Counted from the stretch's first letter, positions 8,249-30,561 are shown. The stretch: 50,766 nt of DNA from Gemmatimonadota bacterium (GCA_040905425.1 JBBDRO010000100.1:133536-184301), one strand, 5' to 3'. Notes: generated by a model from the letters alone, not told the origin. Made by a program: numbers and translations.

Positions 8249-9523
8249 ATGTCTCGCATCGACTCCACCGCTGTCGGCGCCGCCGTGGCGGCGGCGCTCC
8301 TCCTCGGCGCGCTGCCCGCATCGGCGCAGCGCGTCATCGACCTCCCGGGCACCGACCGCGCGTTGCCAGGCGCGCCGGCCGACGTGTGGGCCGTGGGCAC
8401 CGCCATGGGCCGCGACTGGGAGCAGCTGAACGGCGTGGCTGCCATGGCCTTCGACGCGCGAGACAACCTCTACGTGGTCGACTCAGGCAATTTCCGCGTG
8501 CTGCGGTTCGACGCGGCGGGGCGCTTCGTGCGCCAGCTCGGCAGTCAGGGCGGCGGCCCGGGTGAGTTCAGCCTGCCGCGCGGCGTGGCCGTGACCACCG
8601 ACGGCGCCGTGGTGGTGGCGGACATGATGGGCGGCTACGAGGTGTTCGACAGTGCCGGCGCCTTCGTGCGCGCGGTGCCCTACCCGGGTGACATGCGCTC
8701 CGTGCAGCGGCTCGCGGCGCATCCGCGTGAGGGCGTGGTGGCCAGCTCCATGGCGGCGCCCGTCCTGCGCCCCGGCGGGGACATGAGCGCCCTGCGCCAG
8801 CCCATCCCCGTGCGCGTCTTCCAGCAGCCGGTCCGGGCGGACGCACAGCTGACCGTGCTGCACGAGCACAACGATCCGCCGCCCCAGGTGGAGACCAGCT
8901 CGGCGGGCGGGCAGCGGGTGATGATGCGCGTGGGTCCGGGCCGGGACATGTTCGCGCCCGCCTTCAGCTGGGGCGTGCTGCCGGACGGGCGGGTGGCCAC
9001 GCTGAACGGCGCCGCGTACGCCATCCGCATCAACGATGCGCACGGCGCACACGTGGCCACGCTGCAGCGGCCACTGGAGCCGCGCCCCGTCACCGAGCGC
9101 ATCCAGCGGCAGGCGCAAACCGTGGAGCGTGCGCGCTTCGAGCGCGGCGACGCCGGCGCTGGTGGCGTGAGCGTCACCGTGCAGAACGGCGTGACTTCAT
9201 TCGGCAGCGGTGGTGGCGCTGCCGAGCTCACCCCGCAGCAGCTTGACGAGCGCGTGGCGGCGCTCACCTTCGCGGCCGTGGTGCCCGCCGCGCGGCGCAT
9301 GATCACCGATCCGCAGGGGCGGATCTGGGTGGAGCGCTACGCCGCGGATTTCACCGAGCCGGGTCCGGTGGATCTGCTCACGGCGGACGGACGCTACCTG
9401 GGAACGCTGCGGGACACGCCGCTGCCGGCGGCGGTCAGCGCATCCGGCCTGGCGGCCTGGCTGGAGCGTGACGAACTGGGCGTGGAACGGGTGGTGGTGC
9501 GGCGGCTGCCGGGGGGCTGGTGA
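8249..9523 (+). CDS. Secreted NHL-repeat / 6-bladed beta-propeller protein
   Basis: Sec signal ending ASA|Q; NHL blades (DNLYVVDSGNFRVLRFD, LGSQGGGPGEFSLPRGVAV, DPQGRIWV). Confidence 0.85.
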   Translation: MSRIDSTAVGAAVAAALLLGALPASAQRVIDLPGTDRALPGAPADVWAVGTAMGRDWEQLNGVAAMAFDARDNLYVVDSGNFRVLRFDAAGRFVRQLGSQGGGPGEFSLPRGVAVTTDGAVVVADMMGGYEVFDSAGAFVRAVPYPGDMRSVQRLAAHPREGVVASSMAAPVLRPGGDMSALRQPIPVRVFQQPVRADAQLTVLHEHNDPPPQVETSSAGGQRVMMRVGPGRDMFAPAFSWGVLPDGRVATLNGAAYAIRINDAHGAHVATLQRPLEPRPVTERIQRQAQTVERARFERGDAGAGGVSVTVQNGVTSFGSGGGAAELTPQQLDERVAALTFAAVVPAARRMITDPQGRIWVERYAADFTEPGPVDLLTADGRYLGTLRDTPLPAAVSASGLAAWLERDELGVERVVVRRLPGGW

Positions 9524-9563: not shown

Positions 9564-9750
9564 AGCGTACGATTCGATGTGACCGGCCTCCCACCCTGCC
9601 CTCGGGGCGGCCGCGTCGAGACCGCTGCAGTGGCAAGCAACCCGATCTGTGCGGGCAACGTCTCACGAATGATCGAGCGCCCGCCGCCGGGACCTCACGT
9701 GGGGTCACGTGTATGATTCGTACATCGGCCGTGCTCACCTCCATCTACGG

Positions 9751-10968
9751 ATGCCTGGCATGAAGATTCCCAGCAAGCTCATCGGCTTCGGCGTCGTGCT
9801 GCTCATTCTGGCGGTCGGCGGCTTCGGCATCTACAACCGCATCAAGGGGGAGGACGCGGCCGACGCCACGGCCAACGCCGAGGAGGGGTCCGACGCGCCG
9901 CTGCCCTCCGTATCGGCCAACAGCCTCTTCGATGACGCGCTCCCGGTGGACGTGCAGGGCGTGCCGGTGGTCTTCGACACGCTCGTGCGCACGGTGGACG
10001 CCACGGGGCTGGCGGCGCCGTGGCGGGAAAGCGTGGTCGCGGCACAGGTGAGCGGGCGCATTCTTCAGGTGGGGGTACGCGAGGGCCAGCGCGTGGGTGC
10101 CAATACGCCGCTGGTGGTCATCGACAGCACCGACTATGTCATGGACCTGCGAGAGCGCGAGGCGGCGCTGGCGCGGGCCCAGACCCAGTACATGGCGCAG
10201 CTCATCGGCTCGCAGAATTACGACCCCGAGACGCGGGCGGCCGCCGAGCAGGCCGCGCGCAACAGCGTCGGCCTGCCGGGCGCGGAGATCGCCATCCAGC
10301 GCGCACGCCTCAACCTGGCGCGGACCCGGGTCCTGCCAGCCTTTGCCGGCACGGTGGCGGACCTTCAGGTGGTGGAAGGCCAGCACGCCTCCGCGGGGAC
10401 GCCCATCGCCACCATCCAGCAGACGGACCCCATGAAGGTGCAGGCGGCGGTGCTGGAATCGGCCATCTCCGAGATCCACCCCGGCCGCATGGCGGAAGTG
10501 ACCTTCGTGGCCTTTCCCGGAGAGGTCTTCGCAGCCAGGATTGAGAGCATCAATCCGGTGGTGAGCCAGGCCAATACGGCGCGCGTCACGCTCTCCGTGC
10601 GTAACCCCGATGGCCGCATCGTGAGCGGCATGAACGCCAACGTCCGGCTGCCCGCCTCACGCATCCCCGACGTGGTCATGATCCCGAGGGAAGCCGTGGT
10701 GGAGCGGGACATCGAGCGCCGCACGCTGGTCTTCCTGTTCGAGGGGGAGGGGGACATCGGCCGCGCGAAGTGGCAGTACGTGACGCTCCACCGCCGCAAC
10801 AACACGCACTACGAGATCATCGACGATCCCAACGACCCGCGGGATCGCCTCCTGGAGCCGGGCGAGATCGTGCTGGTGAGCGGGCACAAGAACCTCGAGC
10901 ACGACGCCAAGGTGCGCCTGGGCGGCGGCGTGCGCACGGTGGACGGCGTGGTCACCGGCAACCGGTGA
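9751..10968 (+). CDS. RND efflux periplasmic adaptor (membrane fusion protein)
   Basis: N-terminal TM, VAAQVSGRI...VREGQRV lipoyl-like half, hairpin, AFAGTV, beta-barrel and IPREAV. Start at ATG 9751 or 9760. Confidence 0.92.
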   Translation: MPGMKIPSKLIGFGVVLLILAVGGFGIYNRIKGEDAADATANAEEGSDAPLPSVSANSLFDDALPVDVQGVPVVFDTLVRTVDATGLAAPWRESVVAAQVSGRILQVGVREGQRVGANTPLVVIDSTDYVMDLREREAALARAQTQYMAQLIGSQNYDPETRAAAEQAARNSVGLPGAEIAIQRARLNLARTRVLPAFAGTVADLQVVEGQHASAGTPIATIQQTDPMKVQAAVLESAISEIHPGRMAEVTFVAFPGEVFAARIESINPVVSQANTARVTLSVRNPDGRIVSGMNANVRLPASRIPDVVMIPREAVVERDIERRTLVFLFEGEGDIGRAKWQYVTLHRRNNTHYEIIDDPNDPRDRLLEPGEIVLVSGHKNLEHDAKVRLGGGVRTVDGVVTGNR

Positions 10969-18500: not shown

Positions 18501-18878
18501 CGGCCCATCCTCATGACCTCACTCACCACCATCTGCGGGCTGCTGCCGCTCGTGCTCTTCTCGGAGACCGCGGACTCGCGCATCTGGAACGCCCTGGCCA
18601 ACACGCTCATCGGCGGCCTGTCCAGCTCCATGTTCCTGGTGCTCACGGTAACGCCGGCGCTCTACTACCTGTTCGAGGCCCGCGCCGAGAAGAAGCGGCT
18701 CGTGCTGGCGGGTACATGGGAGGAGCCGGTGCGCACGGGTCCGCCGCTCTGGAAGCGCGCGCCGAAGGCGGTGGGCCGCTTCGCGATGCGCGCGCCGGTG
18801 TGGACGTGGCGGGGGCTCACCTGGGCGCCGAAGAAGGTCTGGCGGGTGTACAGCGGGCGCGGCGGGCCACCCGATTGA
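15591..18878 (+). CDS. RND efflux permease (AcrB/AcrD/AcrF family), subunit 2
   Basis: ATG 2 nt after the previous stop; RRPVAVAM, GLVVDNAIVVLENI, GIVVNNAILLVD and RVRPILMT motifs. Confidence 0.95.
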   Translation: MIIRTAIRRPVAVAMTYVVIASLGFLAWRNMPLELMPETALPQLSVQASYPGASPEVTEAFVTSPLEAAIQQVQGVDSISSVSTEGRAAIQVKFDRDADMDFARLELSERLASLEDVLPDGVRPTVDPYVPSEFQESLRPLLVYQITGPFTLEYQREYLLEEVSEVLLRLRGVEDVRVSGGRDRVFNLVLDEDQTRALGLTLDAVRQRIIDLEWIKEAGHVGVADGTLRTIAIRETVGSTEEILNTPLLTNGGRIVRVRDVADAYETWTEPTGYNRINSNPAVTMQIYRAHGTNAVQVADSVIATLAGLEPHFPGGMRMELIRNQSDDIEKQLTDLGERAVVSAVVVMLVLLVFLRDVRAAVIVFTTVAFAVLITINAIYFLGFSLNILTLMGLAMGFGLVVDNAIVVLENIFRHRKQGVDATEAAERGATEVVLPILAATATTVIVVVPFVYLQGALRVYYVPLAVVVGISLVASLFVAFTFIPSLGSRLFKGVKRVLPGSGQEPGGVRAATEDTLVVRAYGGLIRGSVRYWWATLIIAMTMLGGSYYLFDRYVTRGRVWGGGFGGEQRTYIMISLRQARGTSLADTDRFIRSFEERLRPMPEVSTYESTVSAMSGSIRVNFPEELELTSVPLAVEEQLQAFSSGRFGGLSLSIRGVGPGFSTGGMGGSSPNYRIKILGYNYQKVEDIAEALAEKLVGNTRIGEVDTNASSRGYSSARASELTLTPDRDLLALHELSARDVTQLVTAATRSRELSPRTIRVAGEEMRFAPKYEGFEEMDSWGLLQSTLYTPDGRTVRLGDVATIDERRVLSEVRRENQQYERTVGYEFRGPSKLGDKIRDDVLAAMYLPPGYTIDTNTGYFIRADERRQIWGLIGMGILLVFMVTAALFESLKQPLVVLLTVPMALIGVFLIFFYLGATFTREAYIGVVMMSGIVVNNAILLVDHVNQLRRKAGLGLHDALVRGSVERVRPILMTSLTTICGLLPLVLFSETADSRIWNALANTLIGGLSSSMFLVLTVTPALYYLFEARAEKKRLVLAGTWEEPVRTGPPLWKRAPKAVGRFAMRAPVWTWRGLTWAPKKVWRVYSGRGGPPD
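18744..18878 (+). repeat. 135-bp direct repeat, copy 1 (functional 3' end of permease 2)
   Basis: Matches 25137-25271 at 122 of 135 positions (manual count), with no gaps and the stop at the same position. Confidence 0.95.
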
Positions 18879-19157: not shown

Positions 19158-20453
19158 ATGAATGGTATCGAAGCGTATAACGGCGACCTGGGTCAAATCA
19201 GCCTGGCTATACAACGCTACGACAAAATACAATCCGCTATCATTGAGGCTGCTGCGCTACCGAGCAACAAATGGCGACAGTATATCGCCAACTGTGCCAG
19301 TGATTTCATCGGGCAGAATGAAGGTGAATGGCTGCGAAGTACGACCCATCGGAGTGACATCGATTGTTTATTGACAGAAGGAACTGCATGGCTTGACGCC
19401 CCTTCCATACGGTATCTCGACGATTGTTGTAAAGGACCCCCAAATTTCCTGTCGACCATGCACGGGCAGAATATCATCGGTTATAGTTCCGATATCATAC
19501 TGGCTCGCGATCGATGTGCAGCGGTAGCCACTTCTCGGATACCGGTCATCATTGTGGGAGAAACTGGCACCGGCAAAGGAATGATCGCCCGCACCATTCA
19601 TTCAGGTCAGGGGAAGAAGCTACGCACGTTCTACAAGATTTCGGCGGATAATATTTCGACCGGCACCGTATCGTCGCAGCTGTTTGGGCATGTGAAGGGA
19701 GCATTCACCGATGCCCGAAGTAATAGGCAAGGCCTACTCCGGTCGGCATATGAGTGTAGTGGAACGTTGTTTCTCGACGATCTCCCGGACTTTCCGTTGG
19801 AGGTTCAGGCACAACTTCTTCAGGCGTTTGAGGAAGGACAATTCTATCCCTTAGGATCCGACTTGCCAGTCTCAATTGGAGGAAGATTGGACGCGCGACT
19901 GCAAGTCTGTGCTAGTAGCCACTCTGGTGACGCCCTCGCATCGATCCGGCCCGACCTGTACTTTCGCCTTGCTGGAGGCATCATTCGCGTCCCTCCGCTA
20001 AGGGAAAGGCCGTTCGACATTTTGCTCCTTGCGGACTATTTTCTGCATCGCAACTCTGGAGTTACGGGTGGTAGGCCGTCGAGGACTCACGTGCTCGCTC
20101 CAAATATATGCCGACAACTGCTGCGATATGACTGGCCTGGCAATGTGCGACAACTCGAAATGATTCTCCTTCGTGCATTGCTTTTAGGCAATGAGAAACT
20201 ATCGGCGGATGCACTATTGGAAGCCATCGCGCTAGAGAGTCTGCGTGACAATCGTGTTCAAGAGGCTAACGTTGGTAGCATGGCGCCGATGACAGGTGGC
20301 CGAGGACGGATCCTGAATGCTGACGAGGCGAAGCGTCGGCAAATCATAGCCGTCTGGCAGATGGAGATGGGAAATGTGTCGGCGACTGCGAGGCGAATCA
20401 ATGTAAGTCGCAAGACGGTCCAGCGTGCTTTGACGATGGAAGGCCTCCGTTGA
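19158..20453 (+). CDS. Sigma-54-dependent enhancer-binding transcriptional activator
   Basis: Walker A GETGTGKG, LFGHVKGAFTDA, LFLDDL, RPDLYFRL, WPGNVRQL and a C-terminal Fis-type HTH (GNVSATARRINVSRKTV). The N-terminus is not a recognisable receiver domain. Confidence 0.92.
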   Translation: MNGIEAYNGDLGQISLAIQRYDKIQSAIIEAAALPSNKWRQYIANCASDFIGQNEGEWLRSTTHRSDIDCLLTEGTAWLDAPSIRYLDDCCKGPPNFLSTMHGQNIIGYSSDIILARDRCAAVATSRIPVIIVGETGTGKGMIARTIHSGQGKKLRTFYKISADNISTGTVSSQLFGHVKGAFTDARSNRQGLLRSAYECSGTLFLDDLPDFPLEVQAQLLQAFEEGQFYPLGSDLPVSIGGRLDARLQVCASSHSGDALASIRPDLYFRLAGGIIRVPPLRERPFDILLLADYFLHRNSGVTGGRPSRTHVLAPNICRQLLRYDWPGNVRQLEMILLRALLLGNEKLSADALLEAIALESLRDNRVQEANVGSMAPMTGGRGRILNADEAKRRQIIAVWQMEMGNVSATARRINVSRKTVQRALTMEGLR

Positions 20454-20489
20454 AGTGGGCTTGGCCCTAACTGCCCTGGCGGTCGAAAA

Positions 20490-20803
20490 GTAAGCGTCCG
20501 GCCTCCCCAGGTCGACCAGGCGTACGGGCAACGCGTGGGCGGTCCCACGGGTGGGTGGGAGTCGATTGGCGATGTGAGCGTGGCCGTATGCGAGCGTGCG
20601 GTCTGGGCTGAGGTCGGCTCAGGGTGGCGCTCTGCCATCCTGCAGCGGTCGGGAAACAGTTCATCGAGCCGGTCCTCGTCCCATCCCGCGGCGAGCCTTC
20701 TCAGCACATCGGTCAGGTAGGGCAGCGGCGGCACGCCGTGCTGGGCGGCGCTGCGCATGAGGCTGTAGATCGTCGCGCTCCTCCGGGCGGCGTCGTGCGA
20801 GCC
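20490..20803 (-). mobile_element. IS66-family remnant (transposase C-terminus and terminal repeat)
   Basis: GSHDAARRSATIYSLMRSAAQHGVPPLPYLTDVLRRL...LDELFP resembles the IS66 TnpC C-terminus; the element end GTAAGCGTCC at 20490 fits IS66 termini. Confidence 0.8.
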
Positions 20804-20809
20804 CGGCCG

Positions 20810-21085
20810 AGGCACGGCGGGCGGTGTTCGAGTTCATCGAGGGGTGGTACAATCCTCACCGGCGTCATCCGGCGCTGGGCAGATCTCGCCGGGTGCCATT
20901 ACGGCTCGCGCGAGCCTCAAGGCCCGGGCGGCGGCGGCGTGAGGCTGGTCGCCGCGTGGCGCTGGCAGCCTTCACACCCGCCACTCAACGTGGACTCGCG
21001 CCTCGCGGCGCGATGGGTCTTCGTCCTCCCCCGCTGGAGGGGAGGACCCAAATCAGAACTGTCCACGAAAACCGGGACAACCTCA
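20810..21085 (+). mobile_element. IS3-family remnant (integrase-core C-terminus and right inverted repeat)
   Basis: VFEFIEGWYNPHRRHPALG motif; ends in TGTCCACGAAAACCGGGACAACCTCA, an IS3-type IR ending in CA. Confidence 0.8.
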
Positions 21086-21088
21086 CAT

Positions 21089-21586
21089 TCATTCCGCTAA
21101 AGCCGCCTGTACCATCGCTGTAAGCGGGAGGTGAGCGATAACGTTTCCTGTGCAAGTCGCAACCTGCACTGCCTTGCGCTCTACATTTAGTGATACACGA
21201 CTAGGGTATTTCCATATGAACGCTTGCACACCCTCAGCATCATTATCGGCGATGGCGGTTCGGAGTTCTTCCAGATCTGCTGTAGCTAGCGTGGGACCAC
21301 TTCCATCGCAAAGAGGACCGTGCTTCTCGTCGCAAGTTCCGCTCTCGCATTGACCGTTCACATGGACGCCCCCGTTCCGCATCGCGTTAGGGTCCATATC
21401 CGGGACCTCGAAAGCATAGTGGTAACCAGGGTCACAGTCATAGGAATAACAATGAATATCGCAAAGGTCGACCATCATGATGGGTGCTGCGACGGCCGCG
21501 GCTGGCGATGCTCCACTTCCAGGAACGAGGGTTGCGGCGTATCCTGTGACGGCGAGAAGGCCCAGTAATTGCATTACTTTTCGCAT
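21089..21586 (-). CDS. Secreted Cys/His-rich protein A (165 aa, 7 Cys)
   Basis: ATG overlaps the upstream stop (TAATG) with a GGAGA RBS; N-terminal signal peptide; similar to 27627-28286. Confidence 0.85.
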   Translation of the reverse strand: MRKVMQLLGLLAVTGYAATLVPGSGASPAAAVAAPIMMVDLCDIHCYSYDCDPGYHYAFEVPDMDPNAMRNGGVHVNGQCESGTCDEKHGPLCDGSGPTLATADLEELRTAIADNDAEGVQAFIWKYPSRVSLNVERKAVQVATCTGNVIAHLPLTAMVQAALAE

Positions 21587-22770
21587 TAGTTCTCCATTGG
21601 GGTTAACGAGGCACGCCAAACATCGAAGGTAGTAGGGGCAAGTGTAGAGGCCGCGCGGGATACTAGAAACGAGGCCCCGTTCGCCACGCGTGTGGCTCTC
21701 TCGAACCGGTGGCTGGCAAGTACGCGCCCCGTCGGGACGTGCACAGCATCCAAGATCCAGTCGTGGTCTGCATCGTATTCGTCGGCATCCCAGCGGCGCT
21801 CCCAGACAGTATCTGCGGGCGGCATCCATGCCGCATCCGCAACTCGGATCAACACCCATATTAGGTTAGGTCCCCCGTCGATCAGGGACTGGACAATGGA
21901 AACCGGGCGCTCGCCGTCGCCTTGGTATCTGAGTGCTTCAGAAAACCACTCAGCTTGCACTGGGACTCGGTATAACCGCCGACCGCTCCGCGCATCCCAT
22001 TGCTCGAGTGAATAAGATCCGCGACGTGCCGCCCAAATACTGCCGGCAGCCCCGTAGGTTACAACGTGCTCGGTTGCAAGGGGGAGATCGAAGCGGAAAT
22101 GAGGGGTGTCTGCGCCGAAGGAGAACTCAATACTTCCAGAAGGGTTCGCGCGGTGTAGTGGATAGCCGACTGCGTCAGCAGATCCCACGTGGTCTGCAAC
22201 GACGAAAGTGCCGTCATCCAATATCAGGCTCGGACCACGCAGCGCGAGGATGGATCTCGCGAAGGACAGGTCGGGAGTGAATACCGTGAGCCTTTGAAGT
22301 CCGACATCGAATACGAATACGGAGTCACCGGGACCCAAAACCGGCATGGTAGCGAGCATGAATTCGCCTGGACCCTGCCCCTGTGATCCGACAGTACGCG
22401 AAAGCGATCCGGCTGAATCGTACACCAGCATCCGATGGCGCGTTCGCGCCATCGAGAGAAAGCTGCCATTTCGCAGCTTAATCACTGTCGGACGGTCTGA
22501 GAGAAGACCGGTTTGATCGGGGTCTTCAAGCGTGCCCACCCGCGTGAGTAGCACACCGCATCGGCGCTTGAGGCATTCACCCACCGATATCGGATATTGC
22601 GAGGTAGAATCCCCGAGGGTCTCGACGGAATCCGGGAACTGAGAGGAGCGTTCCGCCTGATTGAGCGCGGATTGTTCGGTATCGCCGATACCGCCGCAGG
22701 AGGTAAGGACCGCCAGTCCAAGCGCGGCGATCACCCTTCGTGCGCGAACTTCGCCTGTTGCTACATGCAT
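21586..22770 (-). CDS. Predicted lipoprotein, NHL/6-bladed beta-propeller (cassette 1)
   Basis: Lipobox LTS|C after RARR and a hydrophobic stretch; VGSQGQGPGEF and GPGDSVFVFD motifs; homologous to 28298-29614. Start uncertain. Confidence 0.82.
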   Translation of the reverse strand: MHVATGEVRARRVIAALGLAVLTSCGGIGDTEQSALNQAERSSQFPDSVETLGDSTSQYPISVGECLKRRCGVLLTRVGTLEDPDQTGLLSDRPTVIKLRNGSFLSMARTRHRMLVYDSAGSLSRTVGSQGQGPGEFMLATMPVLGPGDSVFVFDVGLQRLTVFTPDLSFARSILALRGPSLILDDGTFVVADHVGSADAVGYPLHRANPSGSIEFSFGADTPHFRFDLPLATEHVVTYGAAGSIWAARRGSYSLEQWDARSGRRLYRVPVQAEWFSEALRYQGDGERPVSIVQSLIDGGPNLIWVLIRVADAAWMPPADTVWERRWDADEYDADHDWILDAVHVPTGRVLASHRFERATRVANGASFLVSRAASTLAPTTFDVWRASLTPMEN

Positions 22771-23120
22771 GCCATTACTGTGCGTACGTGGCGGCTTCCG
22801 AGCGCTCATTCGCCTTTGCGCTAAGCAGCTCATTAACAGCACTCCACATGTGGTGATCGGCTCTCGTCTCCACAGGGTCTCAAACGGGCCCGATCGATGA
22901 CACCGGCGACTCCGCTTCGTCGACGATAGGATCAACAACTAAGTTCGTCTCCGGATCCAGTCTTCGCTCGATTCGCGGCTTCAAGGATTAGATCCAGACC
23001 TTCGGCAATGATGACACGCCGAGGCCTCAGCCCGTATATTGGACTGCGATTCCCGAATCGATCAACGTGAAGACCAAGCCGGTATACCCCGCTATTATCA
23101 GGACAACGCAATAGCCACAG

Positions 23121-23789
23121 TTAGTCGCGGGTCGGAATATCGCCGGCCAATAGCACGCCTATCGCCGCCTTAATTTCATCGACTGACGGCGGAGGAGAGT
23201 AGCGCCAGCCAGAAATATGGACTGCGGGGGTGCCCCGGGACCCACTTTGCCGTGCGAAATCGGTAGTCCGGTCAATTTTCGCCACCGGCGTAGGATCTGT
23301 CGCGCAATGTTGAATGGCGAGTGGATTATCGATCCCGGCCTCAATCGCGAACGACTCCCAACTTTTTAGACCCAATGAATCTTGCTTGGCGAAAACAACA
23401 TCCGCCCAAGCTACGAACTGAGCCTGGCCTGCGGCGCACTCAGCCGCCTTAGCAGCAGGTAGGGCGAACCTGTGGTAATCGAGGGGCGAGTGCGCGTAAT
23501 ACACACTGATCGGCTGACCCTCAAGCATAAGCTCATCAATAATTGAGTGAAAACCCCGACACGCTGGACATTCAAAATCAGTGAATACAAGGATTGCAAT
23601 CGGTGCATCTGGCTTGCCGGCCACTAGATGCGCGTCGGCGATAACCTCTTCCCACCCGTCGACGTATTCTACATCGCGACTGATATCGGGATCTCGCTCG
23701 TCAAACGTTTTGTATACGAATGTCAGCGCCACCAATATGGCGGCGACGGCCATGGTTCCTGAAACAGCGCGGTCGAATGTATTCTTCAC
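23121..23789 (-). CDS. DsbA-family thiol-disulfide oxidoreductase (thioredoxin fold)
   Basis: N-terminal TM, FTDFECPAC active site, AAKAAECA and a GTP cis-Pro loop. Confidence 0.92.
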   Translation of the reverse strand: MKNTFDRAVSGTMAVAAILVALTFVYKTFDERDPDISRDVEYVDGWEEVIADAHLVAGKPDAPIAILVFTDFECPACRGFHSIIDELMLEGQPISVYYAHSPLDYHRFALPAAKAAECAAGQAQFVAWADVVFAKQDSLGLKSWESFAIEAGIDNPLAIQHCATDPTPVAKIDRTTDFARQSGSRGTPAVHISGWRYSPPPSVDEIKAAIGVLLAGDIPTRD

Positions 23790-24347
23790 CAGTAGGGCCT
23801 CTTGTAACGGACGACAACAATTGCCATTCGGCTTGGGTGGTTACACTAGCTGCGGGAAGAGGTTGAGCTTTACATCGCTCCTCCCAAGCATGCTATCAAC
23901 ATCTCCATGGACACGGTGGAGCACCTCCAAATCGCCCGATTGAGAGCTGTTTTGAAGGCGCGATCACTGCGCGTACTACGCTGCACGGAACGATCAGACG
24001 GCGCTCGAAGTCACCACCGGTGAGGGTTCACAGGTGCTGAACCTACCTGCGCCAAGAATTCCGGCGCAAAATCCGGCAGGTCAAGCGGCAGACGGTTCCG
24101 TAACTCGACCTTGACTATAACCTGGACACTTGTGTAGCGCACGAGCGCCCGATGGTCCGAGCCTAGCGGGAGCCTGCCTATCTCATCCTCGTGAATCAAC
24201 CCTTGTAAGCCGCTCCTTCTACGACGCTATCATCTACAACCAGCATAGGTCAATCGAACCGGTTCAAATGGTGTCAAACCTCCCCGATCACGTCGGAAGA
24301 ATCCGACCCAGTCCGCGCTTGGTGACAGCGCCTAGCTATAACTGTTG

Positions 24348-24620
24348 TCAAATTGGATCGTCGATGCAAACAATTTCGTAGCGGTATATACCGCTCAGGC
24401 CGCAATGGCCGTTGTACTCGCACCAGACGAGTTCTGTGCCATCCATATCACAGGATTGCATGCACATTTCCATGAGTGTCTCACCCCACGGGCACTCTGA
24501 TACGCAGATGCTACATGGCGAGGGATCGTCTGCGTTTGCAATGCCGGGCGTTGCGAGAATACCGAGATATCCAACGGCTACTATGACCGTCGCTTGTGCT
24601 ACCGACCACTTCATGCCCAT
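24348..24620 (-). CDS. Small secreted 8-cysteine peptide (90-aa precursor, about 60-aa mature)
   Basis: GGGGGA RBS, 30-aa Sec signal ending ANA|D, 8 Cys in the mature part, and an upstream sigma-54 promoter motif. Confidence 0.8.
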   Translation of the reverse strand: MGMKWSVAQATVIVAVGYLGILATPGIANADDPSPCSICVSECPWGETLMEMCMQSCDMDGTELVWCEYNGHCGLSGIYRYEIVCIDDPI

Positions 24621-24747
24621 TGCTTCCCCCTGGATTAGTGCGATCTACGTCTGGTTGGAGTTGGACCGTTACGCACGATGAACATTGCCGGCGTTGCCCG
24701 CACGGTCGAGGATGTGTCGCCATTCTCGACACGGTGAGTTTGTATCG

Positions 24748-24763
24748 AGCAATAATGGTACCA
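24748..24763 (-). promoter_or_regulatory. Sigma-54 (-24/-12) promoter
   Basis: Minus strand TGGTACCATTATTGCT versus consensus TGGCACG-N4-TTGCW, with exact GG-N10-GC spacing, about 130 bp upstream of the 8-Cys peptide gene. Confidence 0.75.
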
Positions 24764-25136
24764 TAGCTCAGCGGCTAGGCGTAAGTGATGTGTTTACAAT
24801 TATATAGATGGGCATTCCTTGGGAAATCTAGATACCGGCGGTTGTATATTTCCTCCCCCCTCCTTGACCCATGGTGGGTAGAAATGGCCCAGACCCAAAT
24901 CTTGCCATTTGTCTGCCCATGACATGACCAACGCACGTGAGGTGGCGGACACTACCTGAATTCCAGTAAGTCACTTGTTCGAATTTGGGGGCACGCTTCA
25001 CACTGTCATCTACACCCATCCATGGCTCGTGACTTTTGCTGAAACTGCGCTGAAATGTGTGTGATTTAACACGTCGGCTCGCGCTTTAGTAGTTGCAATA
25101 GTCCGGGCGTTCCGAGGCCGTATCCGTGAATCTCGA

Positions 25137-25271
25137 CCGCTCTGGAAGCGCGCGCCGAAGGCCGTGGGCCGCTTCATGGTGCGGGCGCCGGTGTGGACGT
25201 GGCGCGGGCTCACCTGGGTGCCGAAGAAGGTCTGGCGGGTGTACAGCGGGCGCGGCGGACCGCCGCCGTGA
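25137..25271 (+). repeat. 135-bp direct repeat, copy 2 (displaced orphan 3' end of permease 2)
   Basis: Encodes PLWKRAPKAVGRFMVRAPVWTWRGLTWVPKKVWRVYSGRGGPPP-stop; GC returns to host level here. Confidence 0.95.
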
Positions 25272-25344
25272 CCGGAGCTTTCCCGACAGCGCGTTGAGGG
25301 TCCTGCCCCGCTGACACCCGGTCGGCGGTGCCCTAGCTTGTGGC

Positions 25345-27504
25345 ATGTCCAGAACCTCAGCACCCAGCACGCTCGAGCCGATCTTCCGGCCCGCGTCCAT
25401 AGCCGTGGTCGGCGCCAGCCGCCGCCCGGGCACCATCGGCTACGAAGTGGTGGACAACCTGCTCCGCCACGGCTTCACGGGGCCCGTCTACCCGGTCAAT
25501 CCCCACGCCCGCTCGATCCACTCCATTCCCGCCTACGCGGACATGGCGGCCATCCCCGACAGCGTGGAGCTGGCCATCGTGGTCACGCCCAAGGAGCGCG
25601 TCGCGGAGGTGGTGCGGGAGTGCGCGGCGGTGGGCGTGAAGGCGGTCATCGTCATCTCGGCGGGCTTCAAGGAGGTGGGCGGCGCCGGCCGGGAGCGCGA
25701 GGCGGAGCTCGTGGAGGTGGCGCGCGCCGCCGGCATGCGCCTGGTGGGGCCGAACTGCCTGGGCGTGCTGAACACGGACCCGTCCGCATCCATGAACGCC
25801 ACCTTCGCGCCCACCATGCCGCCACCCGGGCCGGTGAGCTTCATGAGCCAGTCCGGCGCCATGGGCGTCACCATCCTGGACTACGCCGCCGAGTACGGCA
25901 TCGGCGTCCACCACTTCGTCTCGGTGGGCAACAAGGCGGACGTCAGCGGCAACGACCTGATCGAGTACTGGGCGGAGGATGAGGCCACCCGCGTCATCCT
26001 CATGTACCTGGAGAACTTCGGCAACCCGCGGCGCTTCACGCGGCTGGCCCGCCAGGTGACGAAGACCAAGCCCATCATTGCCGTGAAGGCGGGCCGCACG
26101 GCGGCCGGCGCGCGCGCCGCCTCCTCGCACACGGGGGCGCTGGCGGGGCTGGACGCCACCACCGACGCCCTGCTGGCGCAGTGCGGCGTGCTACGCGTGG
26201 ACACGGTCCAGTCCCTCTTCGACCTGGCCATGGCCTTCAGTCACCTGCCCGTGCCGCGCGGCAACCGGGTGGCGGTGGTCACCAACGCCGGCGGGCCGGG
26301 CATCATCATCGCGGACGCCTGCGAGTCCCAGGGGCTGGTGCTGCCGGAGCTCTCGGCAGAGACGCAGGAGCGTCTGCGCGCGGCGCTGCCGGAGGAGGCC
26401 AGCGTGCGCAATCCGGTGGACATGATCGCCTCGGCCACGGCGGACTCCTACCGCATGGCGCTGGACGCGGCGCTGGCCGATCCGGAGGTGGACGCCGCCA
26501 TCGCCGCCTTCGTGCCGCCGCTCTGGGTGCGCCAGCTGGACGTGGCGGGCGCCATCGTGGACGCGCATCAGGCCCACCCGGACAAGCCGCTGCTGGCGGT
26601 GCTGATGGGCCGCGAGGGGCTGCCGCAGGGCCGCGCGGAGCTGAAGGAGGCGGGCGTGCCCGCCTACATCTTCCCTGAGTCGGCGGCGCGGGCGCTGGCG
26701 GCCATGTACCGCCATCGGCTGTGGCTGGACCGCCCGGAGGGGGAGGTGCGGACGTTCGAGGTGGATCGCGCCGCCGCGGAGGCGGTGCTGGCCGGCTACG
26801 GTCCAGGTCAGGAGCTCACCACCACGGACGCCATGGCGGTCTTCCGCGCCTACGGCATCCCCACCGTCCAGCAGCGCGTGGCCACCACGGCCGACGAGGC
26901 CGCGGCGGCGGCCCGTGAGCTGGGGCTGCCCGTCGTGCTCAAGATCCTCTCCGCCGACATATCCCATAAAAGTGACGTGGGCGGCGTGGTGGTGGACATC
27001 CGCACGGAGGAGGAGGTGCGGAGTGCCTTCGCGGCCATGCTCGAGCGGGTGCGCACGGCGCTGCCGGAGGCGGACGTGGAGGGCGTGCTGGTGGAGCAGT
27101 TCGTCAAGGGCGGCCGGGAGACCATCATCGGCATGAGCCAGGACCCCACCTTCGGCCCCGTGCTCATGTTCGGCCTGGGCGGCATCTACGTAGAGGCGCT
27201 CAAAGACGTGGCCTTCCGGGTGCAGCCGGTGAGCGACGTGGACGCCCGCGAGATGGTGCGCGCCATCCGCGGCTTCCCGCTGCTCGAGGGCATGCGCGGT
27301 GAGGCCCCCTCGGACCTGGACGCCCTGGTGGAGACCATCCAGCGCGTCTCGCAACTCTCCGGCGAGCTGGGGCAGATCGCCGAACTGGACATCAATCCGT
27401 TCTTCGTCTTCGAGGAGGGCGGCATTGCCGCGGACGCGCGCATCCGGCTGGCGGAGGAGGCGGGCGCTTCGCCGCCGCTCGGCAGCGGCGCCGTCGAGCC
27501 GTAG
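25345..27504 (+). CDS. Acyl-CoA synthetase (NDP-forming) / acetate-CoA ligase family, fused alpha-beta
   Basis: SIAVVGAS CoA-binding motif, GPNCLG, SQSGA, SHTGALAG phospho-His, TNAGG and an ATP-grasp domain (HKSDVGGV, DPTFGP, ELDINP); no GNAT domain. Confidence 0.93.
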   Translation: MSRTSAPSTLEPIFRPASIAVVGASRRPGTIGYEVVDNLLRHGFTGPVYPVNPHARSIHSIPAYADMAAIPDSVELAIVVTPKERVAEVVRECAAVGVKAVIVISAGFKEVGGAGREREAELVEVARAAGMRLVGPNCLGVLNTDPSASMNATFAPTMPPPGPVSFMSQSGAMGVTILDYAAEYGIGVHHFVSVGNKADVSGNDLIEYWAEDEATRVILMYLENFGNPRRFTRLARQVTKTKPIIAVKAGRTAAGARAASSHTGALAGLDATTDALLAQCGVLRVDTVQSLFDLAMAFSHLPVPRGNRVAVVTNAGGPGIIIADACESQGLVLPELSAETQERLRAALPEEASVRNPVDMIASATADSYRMALDAALADPEVDAAIAAFVPPLWVRQLDVAGAIVDAHQAHPDKPLLAVLMGREGLPQGRAELKEAGVPAYIFPESAARALAAMYRHRLWLDRPEGEVRTFEVDRAAAEAVLAGYGPGQELTTTDAMAVFRAYGIPTVQQRVATTADEAAAAARELGLPVVLKILSADISHKSDVGGVVVDIRTEEEVRSAFAAMLERVRTALPEADVEGVLVEQFVKGGRETIIGMSQDPTFGPVLMFGLGGIYVEALKDVAFRVQPVSDVDAREMVRAIRGFPLLEGMRGEAPSDLDALVETIQRVSQLSGELGQIAELDINPFFVFEEGGIAADARIRLAEEAGASPPLGSGAVEP

Positions 27505-27530
27505 CTGGCGGCGCTACTCCGGAAGGTGAC

Positions 27531-27596
27531 GGGGGACGTCGCTTGAAAGAGAAAACGCGCCCCGGGGAAAAACCTCTCGGGGCGCGTTCTCGTGGG
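27531..27596 (-). terminator. Rho-independent terminator, repeat copy A (left boundary of cassette 2)
   Basis: AACGCGCCCCG...CGGGGCGCGTT hairpin with a minus-strand U-rich tail; diverged duplicate of 30498-30561. Confidence 0.85.
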
Positions 27597-27626
27597 GCGC
27601 GCGCAGTGGGCGTCAGGCGCATCACC

Positions 27627-28286
27627 TTAGCTGATCAGATTCTCCTCACTCAATTTCTTCGCGAGCGGACGCCACATGGCCTCGTCCAATTCAACGCTGT
27701 GATCGACATTCTCGGAGTTACAAGCGGACATCACCTGAACCAACCCACGGTCGTGATTAAAACGCATCCGCTCCGTCATCGAGATCAAGTCAGCAAGGCC
27801 GCCAACATCCGCAATTCGAATGAGACGCTCCGCGTCCTCGCCGAGGAGCCGGGAAGCTGGGCCTCCTCCCCCATCGCACGGGGTGTGACACTCGCCTTCC
27901 TGCCATTCGGGATGGCAGTCAGAATACAAACCGCAACCGACACAACCGCCCCCCGATTCCTCCATGGCATCGTCAACGAAAAGCGCGACATCGCTATCAT
28001 TTACGGCTAGCCCTGAAGCGTTACATTCCCCGCTACCCTCATCGATCCTGTGCCAGTATTCCACCGTACACCCTCCGCTCCCGCATGTTTCTATTCTGTT
28101 TTCCCAGCACCACTCACACTGCAGCGAATCGCCGGCCTCGATCCGACCATCAGGCAGCTCGTCGACGGCCCCGATCCCACCATCAGGCAGCTCATCGATG
28201 GCCCCGACCGCACCACCAGGCATTGCGATTACCGCAACTGCCGTGAGTCCCACCACCACTCTTGCCCAACCGGCTCTCCGCGACAT
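27627..28286 (-). CDS. Secreted Cys/His-rich protein B (219 aa, 11 Cys)
   Basis: GGAGG RBS next to the upstream stop; signal peptide; C-terminal similarity to protein A. Confidence 0.85.
   Translation of the reverse strand: MSRRAGWARVVVGLTAVAVIAMPGGAVGAIDELPDGGIGAVDELPDGRIEAGDSLQCEWCWENRIETCGSGGCTVEYWHRIDEGSGECNASGLAVNDSDVALFVDDAMEESGGGCVGCGLYSDCHPEWQEGECHTPCDGGGGPASRLLGEDAERLIRIADVGGLADLISMTERMRFNHDRGLVQVMSACNSENVDHSVELDEAMWRPLAKKLSEENLIS
28141..28206. repeat. Two 33-bp tandem units in protein B (GAIDELPDGGI / GAVDELPDGRI)
   Basis: 28141-28173 and 28174-28206 differ at 3 positions. Confidence 0.85.
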
Positions 28287-28297
28287 TGAATGCCTCC

Positions 28298-29614
28298 CTA
28301 GGGTTGTTGTAAACGTGGAACAATCACCTTCACTGAGATAAACCCATCTGCACCCACGTGAGGTCGAAATATAAATCCGTGCGGGTCTAGAAACGCGTAG
28401 CCGTCAAGATAATGCCGGGCCACCAAATTACCGGTCTCAAGATCCACGGCATCTATTGCGGTCCGATACAGTAATTGTCGCATCTCGGGCTGCTGCACCA
28501 GTTCGGTGGTCGAACGATCCCATTTCACACGAATAGTGTCCCAACCGACCGCCGGAACCGCAATTGTAACCCAGAGCACTTCTCCATCTTCCGCCATCCC
28601 TGTAATAGCCGGCCGCGGAGGCAACGGCATCGTAGCCGGCCTGTGCTTGAGCATATCGCTCCTAACTATCGTCTTTGTTGATCGTTCACGCACTTTTATG
28701 GCGGCCGCCCGATCTATATACATTTGCAAATTCCAAGAGTCAGGAGGCTGCACCGCAAGGACACGATGAATCGAACCCAACGAATCCATAACTTCGATCC
28801 GATAGTTAACAGATTCGGCCACCCACAACCGTCCATCGGAACCCGCACTGATGGTCCGCAACAACATATTACCGAAATTGGCAATGTTTGGAGTGCCGAT
28901 CGAGCGTAAAATGTTTCCTTCGGAATCGACAACGTGAAACGGGATTCCGTAAAGGCTCGGGGTTTGCAGTTGGGAGAAGCTTATTAAGTTTCCGTTGTCA
29001 AGCGCAATCACACGCTCCATAAATGGCGTCGGAACCGCCCCACCGCGAACATATTCGCCCGCAGAATCGAAGACACTCACAACGTTCCTATCATGTACCA
29101 CATACAATGAGTCTCCCGGACCTACGGTAAGCGCCATTACGCGGACGAACTCCCCCGGGCCTCGGCCCTGAGCGCCAACCGGCCTGACAAATTCCCCGCC
29201 CTGTGAGTACAGCACCACATCCTGGCGCTCACGGTAGGGAGTAGCTGCGTAGAATCGCTGTTTGCTGTCCGCCGCCACTAGCGGTAAGTTCTGCATTATT
29301 ATGGGATCCAAGCGCGACCCGAGAATTGCTACGGAATCTAACCGAATCTCGCAATCGACGCAGTCCGGTATTGTATCTCTGTAGACCGACATTGCCTCGG
29401 TGCCCGCAATGCTTACCGCCTCCACGTTCGAATCAGCGGGAGCATCCACGCTAGGCGAACATGCCGCCGCCATCAGCGCCAATCCGTACTTCATCCCCTT
29501 CAATTTGGCGGCTCTGCCCTGCGCCACGATCCTCGCGACGGCTTCGCAGGCCGGGCGCAGAACGAGCCTCTCAACTGCTGCAGGCTTGGCTGGCGACACG
29601 GCTCCTGGAAGCAC
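28298..29614 (-). CDS. Predicted lipoprotein, NHL/6-bladed beta-propeller (cassette 2)
   Basis: Lipobox-like AAA|C; VGAQGRGPGEF, GPGDSLYV and DGRLWVA motifs. Start GTG 29614 (GGAGGAG RBS) or ATG 29494. Confidence 0.82.
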   Translation of the reverse strand: MLPGAVSPAKPAAVERLVLRPACEAVARIVAQGRAAKLKGMKYGLALMAAACSPSVDAPADSNVEAVSIAGTEAMSVYRDTIPDCVDCEIRLDSVAILGSRLDPIIMQNLPLVAADSKQRFYAATPYRERQDVVLYSQGGEFVRPVGAQGRGPGEFVRVMALTVGPGDSLYVVHDRNVVSVFDSAGEYVRGGAVPTPFMERVIALDNGNLISFSQLQTPSLYGIPFHVVDSEGNILRSIGTPNIANFGNMLLRTISAGSDGRLWVAESVNYRIEVMDSLGSIHRVLAVQPPDSWNLQMYIDRAAAIKVRERSTKTIVRSDMLKHRPATMPLPPRPAITGMAEDGEVLWVTIAVPAVGWDTIRVKWDRSTTELVQQPEMRQLLYRTAIDAVDLETGNLVARHYLDGYAFLDPHGFIFRPHVGADGFISVKVIVPRLQQP

Positions 29615-29681: not shown

Positions 29682-30311
29682 CTAATCCTCAAAATCCCCC
29701 CCCCCCCACGCCCGAGCACAGAGCATGTCGGCCACCGCGCTCTTGCCGTCGGCGATCCCCCTCCGCGCCAGGCCGACGCGCACCAGCTCATGCGTTCTGG
29801 TGACCAGCTTCTCGAGGCGTTTCGGGCGGACGCCCAGGATGGTGGCGATGACGGCGTTGGGGAGGCGCATGAAATACTTGAGGTGAATGAGCTGGCGGTT
29901 TCTGGCGGGGAGCTCGTCGATGATCGCGTGGAGCGCGCGGCGGACACGGCGCCGGCCCAGCACCTCATCGAGCGTGGGTGCGGCGATGCTGCTGGAGGCC
30001 GCCTCCGGAAGCTGGTCCAGCGGGACGCGTTTCCCATCCTTGCGTTGGCCGAGGATGGTGAGAGCTTCGTTCCAGACGGCTGTGCGGAGATATGCCTCGT
30101 GTTTCCCCTCGGGGACGCGCAGCAGGAAATCCGCCGGCAGTTTGATGAATGCCCGCTGGACGGCGTCCTCCGCATCGTCGATGTCGTGCAGCACGCTGAG
30201 AGCGATGGTCAGCATGGACCGCGCGTGTGCAAAGAAGAGGTCGGCGATGGAATCATCGCGTTGCGCAGCGGGCCCCATGGGAATCGGGCGGACGGGATCG
30301 AGGTCGGCCAT
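29682..30311 (-). CDS. ECF-type sigma-70 factor
   Basis: Region 2 (DAEDAVQRAFIKL...AYLRTAVWNEAL) and region 4 (IDELPARNRQLIHLKYF...IATILG); GGAGG RBS before ATG 30311. Confidence 0.85.
   Translation of the reverse strand: MADLDPVRPIPMGPAAQRDDSIADLFFAHARSMLTIALSVLHDIDDAEDAVQRAFIKLPADFLLRVPEGKHEAYLRTAVWNEALTILGQRKDGKRVPLDQLPEAASSSIAAPTLDEVLGRRRVRRALHAIIDELPARNRQLIHLKYFMRLPNAVIATILGVRPKRLEKLVTRTHELVRVGLARRGIADGKSAVADMLCARAWGGGDFED
29696..29707. repeat. C12/G12 homopolymer
   Basis: Twelve consecutive C on the plus strand, encoding WGGGD near the sigma C-terminus. Confidence 0.9.
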
Positions 30312-30497
30312 ACGCACCTCCGGCATGGACAACGCGACGCCGTCGACACCGCCGCAGAGGATGGGCCTTCCCCTACCTACGGCCTGGCCCACGCTCACGC
30401 AAGCTTTTTCCACTTCAGCAATGCGCAAGCTTCGCTGCAACACGCGCGTGCGGGTGTGGGGCCGCCGGCGCACGCGCGTATGCGCCGGTGAACGGAA

Positions 30498-30561
30498 GGG
30501 GGACGTCGCTTGAAAAAGAACGCGCCCCGGGGGAAGAGCCTCCCGGGGCGCGTCTCGTGGG
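30498..30561 (-). terminator. Rho-independent terminator of the S41 protease gene, repeat copy B
   Basis: ACGCGCCCCGGG...CCCGGGGCGCGT hairpin with a minus-strand TTCTTTTT tail, just after the stop at 30574. Confidence 0.88.

Follow-up and report, generated by a model that had tools for sequence, protein, structure and literature searches.

The locus described here raises the question of whether two small, cysteine-rich proteins encoded in the same stretch of bacterial DNA belong to one protein family and, if so, what such a family might do. The stretch, referred to below as the window, comprises 50,766 nucleotides (nt) of a Gemmatimonadota bacterium (GCA_040905425.1 JBBDRO010000100.1:133536-184301). 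Translation places the gene of protein A (165 amino acids, aa) at 21089-21586 and the gene of protein B (219 aa) at 27627-28286, both on the minus strand. A preliminary description of this DNA had grouped the two proteins by their Cys and His residues and had suggested that they carry either a disulfide-stabilised His metal site or a hypervariable effector domain on a conserved carrier domain; the minus strand of both genes, the beta-propeller gene that stands before each of them and the islands of low GC content in which they lie were absent from it. The analysis reported below points to an undescribed family, two diverged members of which each follow a gene for a probable propeller lipoprotein.

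Proteins A and B belong to one family

Protein A comprises a hydrophobic N-terminus with the character of an export signal, an N-terminal domain (N-domain, residues ~40-95) with six Cys and three His, a Gly-rich linker and an alpha/beta C-terminal domain (C-domain) with the single residue Cys145. In protein B, a putative export signal is followed by a region of three repeat copies, an N-domain with ten Cys, a linker of sequence GGGG and a C-domain whose single Cys is Cys189. The Cys residues of A stand at positions 42, 46, 51, 80, 85, 93 and 145 (6 + 1) and those of B at 57, 60, 68, 73, 88, 115, 118, 124, 133, 137 and 189 (10 + 1), while His is found at 45, 56, 75, 89 and 152 in A and at 79, 125, 134, 178 and 196 in B; the sequence strings and Cys numbers given in the preliminary description are all present. 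When the whole window was scanned in six frames, the motifs H-x2/3-C-D-G-x1-3-G-P and R-x3-N-x-[DE]-R-x2-V-Q-V were found in A and B only.

Both genes carry translation signals. The ATG of A shares 1 nt with the stop codon of the gene upstream and is preceded by GGAG 7-10 nt to its 5' side, and the ATG of B, at 28286, has AGGGAGG 6 nt ahead of it. A hairpin plus a T-run lies beyond the stop codon of B. The database entry for B is only a short gene call of 145 aa (P0005) that begins inside the N-domain and has no signal peptide; we favour the 219-aa form because of its strong Shine-Dalgarno sequence, its hydrophobic N-terminus and the length of the long B-type relatives (~210-220 aa). The repeat region of B consists of three tandem 33-nt copies (28121-28219, minus strand), 73-82 % identical to the reference copy, which encode an acidic segment of the D-E-L-P-D-G type between the signal peptide and the first Cys; this segment is disordered in the structural model described below.

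Taken by itself, the similarity of the A/B pair is marginal. BLASTP aligned the two proteins with 20 bits (E = 0.017, 22 of 69 positions identical), and their Smith-Waterman score of 50, set against a mean of 32.3 (standard deviation 5.3) for shuffled sequences, was reached by 15 of 2,000 shuffles. A search profile built from the aligned C-terminal parts of the two proteins was scored against 1.84 billion (1.84e9) representatives of 50 % identity clusters. It matched 144 proteins at E ≤ 1e-3, nine of them at ≤ 1e-10 and two at ≤ 1e-30, the last two being A itself and the short gene call of B. Nearly all the matched proteins are 140-220 aa long, the matched part being their C-terminal half. Two long proteins with multi-stretch matches, P0128 (3872 aa) and P0138 (767 aa), were dropped as spurious, both being repetitive proteins of the immunoglobulin-like/PD40 kind, and 140 retained relatives together with A and B make up a family alignment of 142 sequences.

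The two subtypes were compared with each other in three ways, with the caveat that the members used had been gathered by the joint A+B profile: a hidden Markov model (HMM) of 13 B-type members, B excluded, scored A at 53.3 bits (best of 1,000 shuffles, 7.1 bits); the reverse comparison, of an HMM of 61 A-type members, A excluded, with B, was weak, at 14.8 bits for a best shuffle of 14.5 bits; and alignment of an A-type profile (62 sequences) with a B-type profile (14) by hhalign gave a probability of 98.8 % and E = 4.4e-17 over 77 columns, pairing residues 83-164 of A with 131-209 of B. The 144 profile matches, the score of A in the B-type HMM and the hhalign result settle the reality of the family, and the grouping proposed earlier for A and B thereby held under profile-profile alignment. 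These data indicate, as far as sequence comparison goes, that A and B belong to one real family, undescribed so far, and that they are two anciently diverged paralogues of about 30 % identity, in what appears to be a Gram-negative-type envelope.

Other searches added no members. Homologue searches through a word index, whether started from A, from B or from the family alignment, brought up nothing beyond self matches or three known members, the index being too insensitive here; a pattern search of genome contigs, made from a four-sequence family alignment, gave 29 pattern matches, none of which was confirmed as family; and tblastn of A against plasmid and phage collections gave no match.

Conserved residues, putative export signals and predicted fold

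In the 142-sequence alignment, to which all the following residue counts refer in the numbering of A, invariance is confined, among the conserved residues, to C93 and C145 (142/142 each). R137 is present in 141 sequences, H75, C85 and Q141 in 139 each, H89 in 137, N134 in 131, C42 in 130, C46 and A139 in 128 each, G73 in 125, H152 in 123, G83 and P154 in 118 each, C51 in 116, H56 in 110 and C80 in 100. Where H152 is replaced (19/142), the substitute is mainly S, N or Q. The full signature of 11 residues (C42, C46, C51, H56, H75, C80, C85, H89, C93, C145 and H152) occurs in 87 of the 142 sequences, which shows an N-domain that is conserved rather than hypervariable and makes A typical of the family. 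The pattern of Cys and His first noticed in two proteins is thus kept among their homologues, and the idea of a hypervariable effector domain riding on a conserved carrier has to be given up. A subtype census by strict regular expression assigned 62 of the 142 sequences to the full A-type, 19 to the B-type and nine to a partial type, and left 52 as unclassified variants. The minority subtype to which B belongs has a compact C-x2-C-x5-C-H-x7-C-H-x2-C module, plus four extra Cys.

Cys parity was assessed in 129 full-length members, the 13 N-terminally short rows of the alignment being excluded. The number of Cys in the N-domain is even in 123 of them (six in 91, eight in 22, ten in six, four in three and two in one), and the C-domain holds exactly one Cys in 127. 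The rule of an even N-domain number plus a single C-domain Cys, previously seen in A and B, therefore generalises. C80 never occurs without C51 (0/130 members), and both are absent in 16 of 130, which suggests that Cys residues are gained and lost pairwise; this correlation mirrors subfamily structure as well. On this pattern C51 and C80 would form one disulfide of A, with two further pairs among C42, C46, C85 and C93. A constant odd Cys number is unusual in a secreted family and usually marks a functional thiol, one that binds a metal, acts as a nucleophile, anchors a cofactor or forms an intermolecular bond.

A hydrophobic run was found within the first 40 residues of 111 of the 129 full-length members, seven of which look twin-arginine-like and one lipobox-like, as scored by a crude regular expression. 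Genes for an RND pump and for an HlyD-type adaptor lie within the window, which points to a two-membrane envelope. From the N-terminal signals we infer that the family is exported, and the export signal together with the strictly even Cys number argues for disulfides in the N-domain rather than zinc sites of the cytoplasmic type. The disulfide-stabilised His metal site suggested in the preliminary description would fit both this parity and the conserved His residues.

The structure of A, predicted with AlphaFold from the family alignment, has a predicted local distance difference test score (pLDDT) of 84.4 and a predicted template modelling score (pTM) of 0.65. In this model the N-domain is made of short strands and one short helix, and the C-domain has the order helix-helix-strand-strand-strand-helix. 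The model of B scores lower (pLDDT 73.7, pTM 0.51); it is disordered over 36-52 and 90-110, a hairpin at 56-82 is confident, and the C-domain is likewise confident, with pLDDT of 83-97 in ten-residue blocks over 141-219 and the same order of elements as in A. Foldseek searches of the PDB returned nothing at E ≤ 0.001 for either model (best E = 0.77 for A and 0.67 for B), a search of the predicted viral structures in BFVD with the A model returned nothing at the same threshold (best E = 0.065), and the ESM Atlas gave no usable match. An ankyrin-like reading of the two C-domain helices was not relied on; its sole trace is a match to a gankyrin homologue at E = 4.0.

Sequence profiles gave a similar picture. 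A and B matched no family of Pfam-A or NCBIfam at E ≤ 0.01, and the 142 members matched no family of Pfam or NCBIfam consistently at E ≤ 0.1: each NCBIfam family was matched by one member, and the most frequent Pfam family, zf-CCCH_12, by three of 142 (best E = 0.063). The family profile had a single match among PDB sequences, to a cytochrome c at E = 0.079, and PADLOC identified nothing for A, B, the two neighbouring propellers or the nearby DsbA-like protein. As the preliminary description had recognised no named family, so these searches of Pfam, NCBIfam and PDB sequences yielded no consistent match, and the comparison of predicted folds that it had called for gave confident models without a PDB relative. 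To judge from the models, the family and its confidently predicted fold match nothing described in Pfam, NCBIfam, the PDB or BFVD. A literature search on the combination of propeller, cysteine-rich protein, lipoprotein and extracytoplasmic function (ECF) sigma factor found nothing relevant by title or abstract.

The short C-x2/3-C knuckles with a nearby His recall zinc ribbons, CCCH fingers and c-type cytochromes. However, none of the few weak matches is consistent across the family. The haem c motif (C-x-x-C-H) was rejected, the spacing being mostly C-x3-C and a His after the second Cys (position 47) being present in only 11 of 142 members.

Beta-propeller neighbours and low-GC islands

The gene of A lies directly 3' of a propeller gene (P0003, 21586-22770, minus strand), which it overlaps by 1 nt, and the gene of B begins 11 nt past a second one (P0004, 28298-29494, minus strand), the two partners being on the same strand in both cases. 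The open reading frame (ORF) of P0003 is open up to 22938, with a likely ATG at 22770 before a lipobox-like L-T-S-C, and that of P0004 is open up to 29614, with a likely ATG at 29494, just 3' of GAAGGGG, before a lipobox-like M-A-A-A-C; we infer these starts and lipoboxes from the sequence. P0003 has a C-x4-C pair near its N-terminus and the motif G-Q-G-P-G-E-F, and P0004 has a C-x2-C pair and G-R-G-P-G-E-F. P0004 is a member of the Pfam family DUF5128 (PF17170), with 34.2 bits for a cut-off of 22.9. P0003 stays under that cut-off (17.7 bits), and its membership is indirect, through P0004, with which it shares 25 % identity (BLASTP E = 2e-15); the two are paralogues. Assignment to the lipoproteins with a six-bladed propeller of the DUF5128/NHL type thus applies to these neighbours and not to A or B. 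Since P0003 and P0004 are paralogous, and A and B are paralogous as well, the gene order has been kept while both partners diverged to 25-30 % identity. DUF5128 is itself a family of unknown function, and a literature search found no paper mentioning DUF5128 or PF17170.

A further link between the two families comes from P0080, an unrelated protein of 276 aa in the representative library, in which P0003-like propeller remnants (E = 3e-18) precede a fused C-domain of the A family, as the propeller gene precedes that of A. It runs from a lipobox-like start through the N-terminal Cys motif of the propeller and later blades to the last Cys of the N-domain, a Gly linker and a complete C-domain. Its layout is that of a chimera of the deletion type and suggests that the two genes stand side by side in another organism too.

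A third propeller paralogue of the DUF5128/NHL type is encoded at 8249-9523 on the plus strand, in DNA of native-like GC content (0.741). It is followed by a membrane-fusion gene of the HlyD/CusB type (9709-10968) and by two RND pump ORFs.

The cassettes of A and B each lie inside a low-GC segment (0.563 and 0.593, respectively, versus 0.686 for the window). Island 1 is bounded by direct repeats of 130 nt, the left copy of which (18742-18871) lies partly within an RND pump ORF, at its 3' end, and the right copy of which (25135-25264) is identical to it at 119 of 130 nt. Island 2 is bounded by repeats of ~65 nt, at 27528-27596 and 30495-30561; the left copy contains a terminator hairpin that lies downstream both of B and of an acetate-CoA ligase gene. 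The islands look like two separate insertions flanking this high-GC ligase gene. No integrase was recognised in them, the only mobile-element traces being IS66 remnants (20258-20815).

Regulators and a thiol-disulfide protein are encoded beside the two cassettes. In island 2, upstream of P0004 and on the same strand, lies the gene of an ECF-type sigma-70 factor (29682-30323, minus strand), identified by Pfam Sigma70_r2 and Sigma70_r4_2 and by NCBIfam TIGR02937 (63 bits, cut-off 42.9); its ORF is open up to 30599 and its start is uncertain. In island 1, upstream of P0003 and on the same strand, a DsbA-like protein of thioredoxin fold is encoded (23121-23789, minus strand), with a C-P-A-C motif and a hydrophobic stretch at its N-terminus, which belongs by score to Thioredoxin_4 (62.8 bits, cut-off 23.2) and DSBA (26.8 bits, cut-off 25.6). 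The same island encodes a sigma-54-dependent activator (19158-20453, plus strand; Pfam Sigma54_activat, E = 4.5e-35, with NCBIfam support) with an AAA+ and a helix-turn-helix domain and no recognised sensor domain.

Also in island 1, upstream of the A cassette and on the same strand, is a secreted ORF of 90 aa with eight Cys (24348-24620, minus strand). It was considered as a stand-alone relative of the N-domain and rejected, the N-domain HMM scoring it at -3.0 bits, about rank 220 of 1,001 among shuffles. About 125 nt upstream of it stands a -24/-12 element of the sigma-54 type (24749-24763, minus strand), with one mismatch to the consensus. A scan of the whole window allowing up to two mismatches gave 36 matches, fewer than the mean of 60 in shuffles, and this element is therefore only a lead. 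A short ORF at 20824-21123 (plus strand) has no Pfam match; its tail presumably resembles the C-terminus of an IS3-type transposase.

A possible partner of the propeller, and the alternatives

We tentatively propose that the family is an exported, disulfide-knotted module with a functional site of His residues and a free Cys, and that it acts as the partner of a beta-propeller lipoprotein; as a whole this reading, the most parsimonious of those considered here, is somewhat less likely than not. The protein would pass the inner membrane unfolded by means of its N-terminal hydrophobic signal and would be oxidised in the periplasm, the DsbA-like protein of island 1 being a candidate helper from nearby. 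In the N-domain, of ~55 residues and longer in B, three to five disulfides would fix the three conserved His (H56, H75 and H89 in A). The Gly-rich linker would join it to the C-domain, of ~65 residues, where the only unpaired Cys (C145 in A, C189 in B) would lie beside N134, R137, Q141 and the conserved H152. The functional site would be made up of the His residues together with the free thiol, and would most probably be a metal site of the Cu/Zn type at the domain interface. The small protein would then work with the propeller lipoprotein encoded immediately upstream, and the two genes would constitute a horizontally acquired cassette under a regulator of its own, the ECF sigma factor in the case of B and possibly the sigma-54 activator in that of A.

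Several observations weigh against this proposal. A propeller-derived part is present in only one of the 146 fetched proteins, P0080. No A-family ORF was found by hmmsearch (E < 10) at any of 28 distant propeller loci in species-representative genomes, the closest propeller relatives among these, from metagenome-assembled genomes of a Longimicrobium and of a member of the Gemmatimonadales, being equally devoid of one; at the Longimicrobium locus an unrelated ORF follows the propeller. The third propeller paralogue of the window has no A-like partner either. From the 28 loci and this third paralogue it follows that the pairing is not general among DUF5128 propellers; these loci are distant from P0003, however (best phmmer E = 1.3e-12), so that what they test is DUF5128 at large, not the subgroup linked to A. 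The two cassettes in the window may also share one origin, in which case they would not be fully independent. As to the chemistry, metal sites of the Cys4 or Cys2His2 kind would also be in keeping with an even Cys parity, and C93 and C145, the sole two invariant residues, could form an interdomain disulfide, which would put the free Cys in the N-domain.

The most durable alternative is that the small protein binds, buffers or chaperones a metal (Cu or Zn) in the periplasm on its own, the propeller being a fellow passenger. The conserved His and Cys are candidate ligands for such a protein, its N-terminus carries the export signal, an ECF sigma gene lies upstream of the B cassette, and propeller relatives are mostly without a partner (0/28). 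ECF sigma factors often govern envelope or metal stress responses. On the other hand, a passenger would hardly account for a tight arrangement, down to a 1-nt overlap, that is kept in two copies diverged to 25-30 % identity, nor for a chimera that ties both families together, and scans with Pfam and NCBIfam recognised no metal-resistance gene inside either island. We consider a stand-alone metal protein unlikely.

Chemistry at the thiol itself is a second alternative. The C-domain would then be a thiol enzyme or a covalent-chemistry module in which C145 would be the nucleophile and H152 the base, and N134, R137 and Q141 would make up an oxyanion or substrate site; the N-domain would be a purely structural disulfide knot, and the propeller would present a substrate from the envelope. 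The single invariant C-domain Cys of a secreted protein, flanked by N134, R137, Q141 and the conserved H152, would suit such a module, and so would the odd Cys number of the mature protein throughout the family. But for an enzyme the domain would be very small, and it resembles no Cys-His hydrolase or transferase in sequence or fold; the one Pfam match to Peptidase_C1, in 1 of 142 members (E = 0.0044), is isolated noise, and the proposed base, H152, is replaced in 19 of 142. This makes catalysis by C145 and H152 distinctly unlikely.

A bolder form of the proposal that the small protein and the propeller are partners would make them the two subunits of a new periplasmic enzyme, in which the disulfide-knotted domain would keep the lone invariant Cys close to the conserved His; this Cys would serve either as the place where a cofactor, metallic or derived from the protein, is attached or formed, or as the catalytic nucleophile. 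Such an enzyme would correspond in function to the quinoprotein amine dehydrogenases, would have an unrelated fold not seen before and would be encoded by a self-regulated mobile cassette. We regard this as a speculation with little prospect of being right.

That A and B could be polymorphic secreted effectors or bacteriocins, with the Cys-rich N-domain as the active part and the lipoprotein as an immunity protein or export helper, is brought to mind by the setting: small secreted Cys-rich proteins in low-GC islands, at least two N-domain architectures, and a second, unrelated secreted ORF with eight Cys in island 1. The conservation of the N-domain, with the full signature in 87 of 142 members, speaks against a diversifying active part, and the strongest conservation is found at putative functional residues across both domains. 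Moreover, Pfam, NCBIfam and PADLOC recognised no secretion-system, lysis or immunity family, and the plasmid and phage collections held no match. An effector role is accordingly improbable.

Methylamine dehydrogenase offers a known precedent for a small disulfide-rich protein next to a propeller. The enzyme has a beta-propeller heavy chain, MauB, and a small disulfide-rich light chain, MauA, which bears a protein-derived cofactor, and it is matured with a thioredoxin-like helper, MauD; in MauA two conserved Trp form this cofactor, tryptophan tryptophylquinone (TTQ), and 12 Cys form six disulfides. What MauD does, and that the enzyme has six disulfides, is described in a preprint (bioRxiv 10.64898/2026.03.05.709764). 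The loci described here share this parts list, namely a propeller gene, a small exported protein of the disulfide type and a nearby gene for a DsbA/MauD-like CxxC protein of thioredoxin fold, and A and B might on that account be taken for light-chain-type subunits of a quinoprotein-like dehydrogenase. The likeness, however, ends with the list. The propeller is here a lipoprotein of the DUF5128 type, named six-bladed by Pfam; among the families listed at E ≤ 0.1, the Pfam light-chain family is matched by 0 of 142 members; Trp reaches at most 42 of 142 at any position of A from 36 on, so that there is no conserved Trp pair; the modal number of Cys is six in the N-domain plus one, not 12; and the islands showed no recognisable gene for MauG, MauE or a cytochrome-type protein. 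A and B are thus not members of the light-chain family, and a subunit of this kind is very improbable. Finally, chance resemblance of two unrelated or non-coding ORFs, which would fit the weak pair statistics (E = 0.017; 15 of 2,000 shuffles) and the narrow margin of the A-type HMM on B (14.8 versus 14.5 bits), is refuted by the 144 database matches, the hhalign E-value of 4.4e-17 and the score of A in the B-type HMM (53.3 versus 7.1 bits), as well as by two confident models and the presence of ribosome-binding sites and a terminator.

Orphan families of this sort are often met with in environmental bacteria, and the value of the present one lies in a well-defined new domain family rather than in a solved mechanism. 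It is moderately large and sharply conserved, a weak profile of two sequences having retrieved, in addition to A and B, 140 relatives that are credible. Should the pairing with DUF5128 propellers be true, it would provide the first functional handle on a large lipoprotein family of unknown function.

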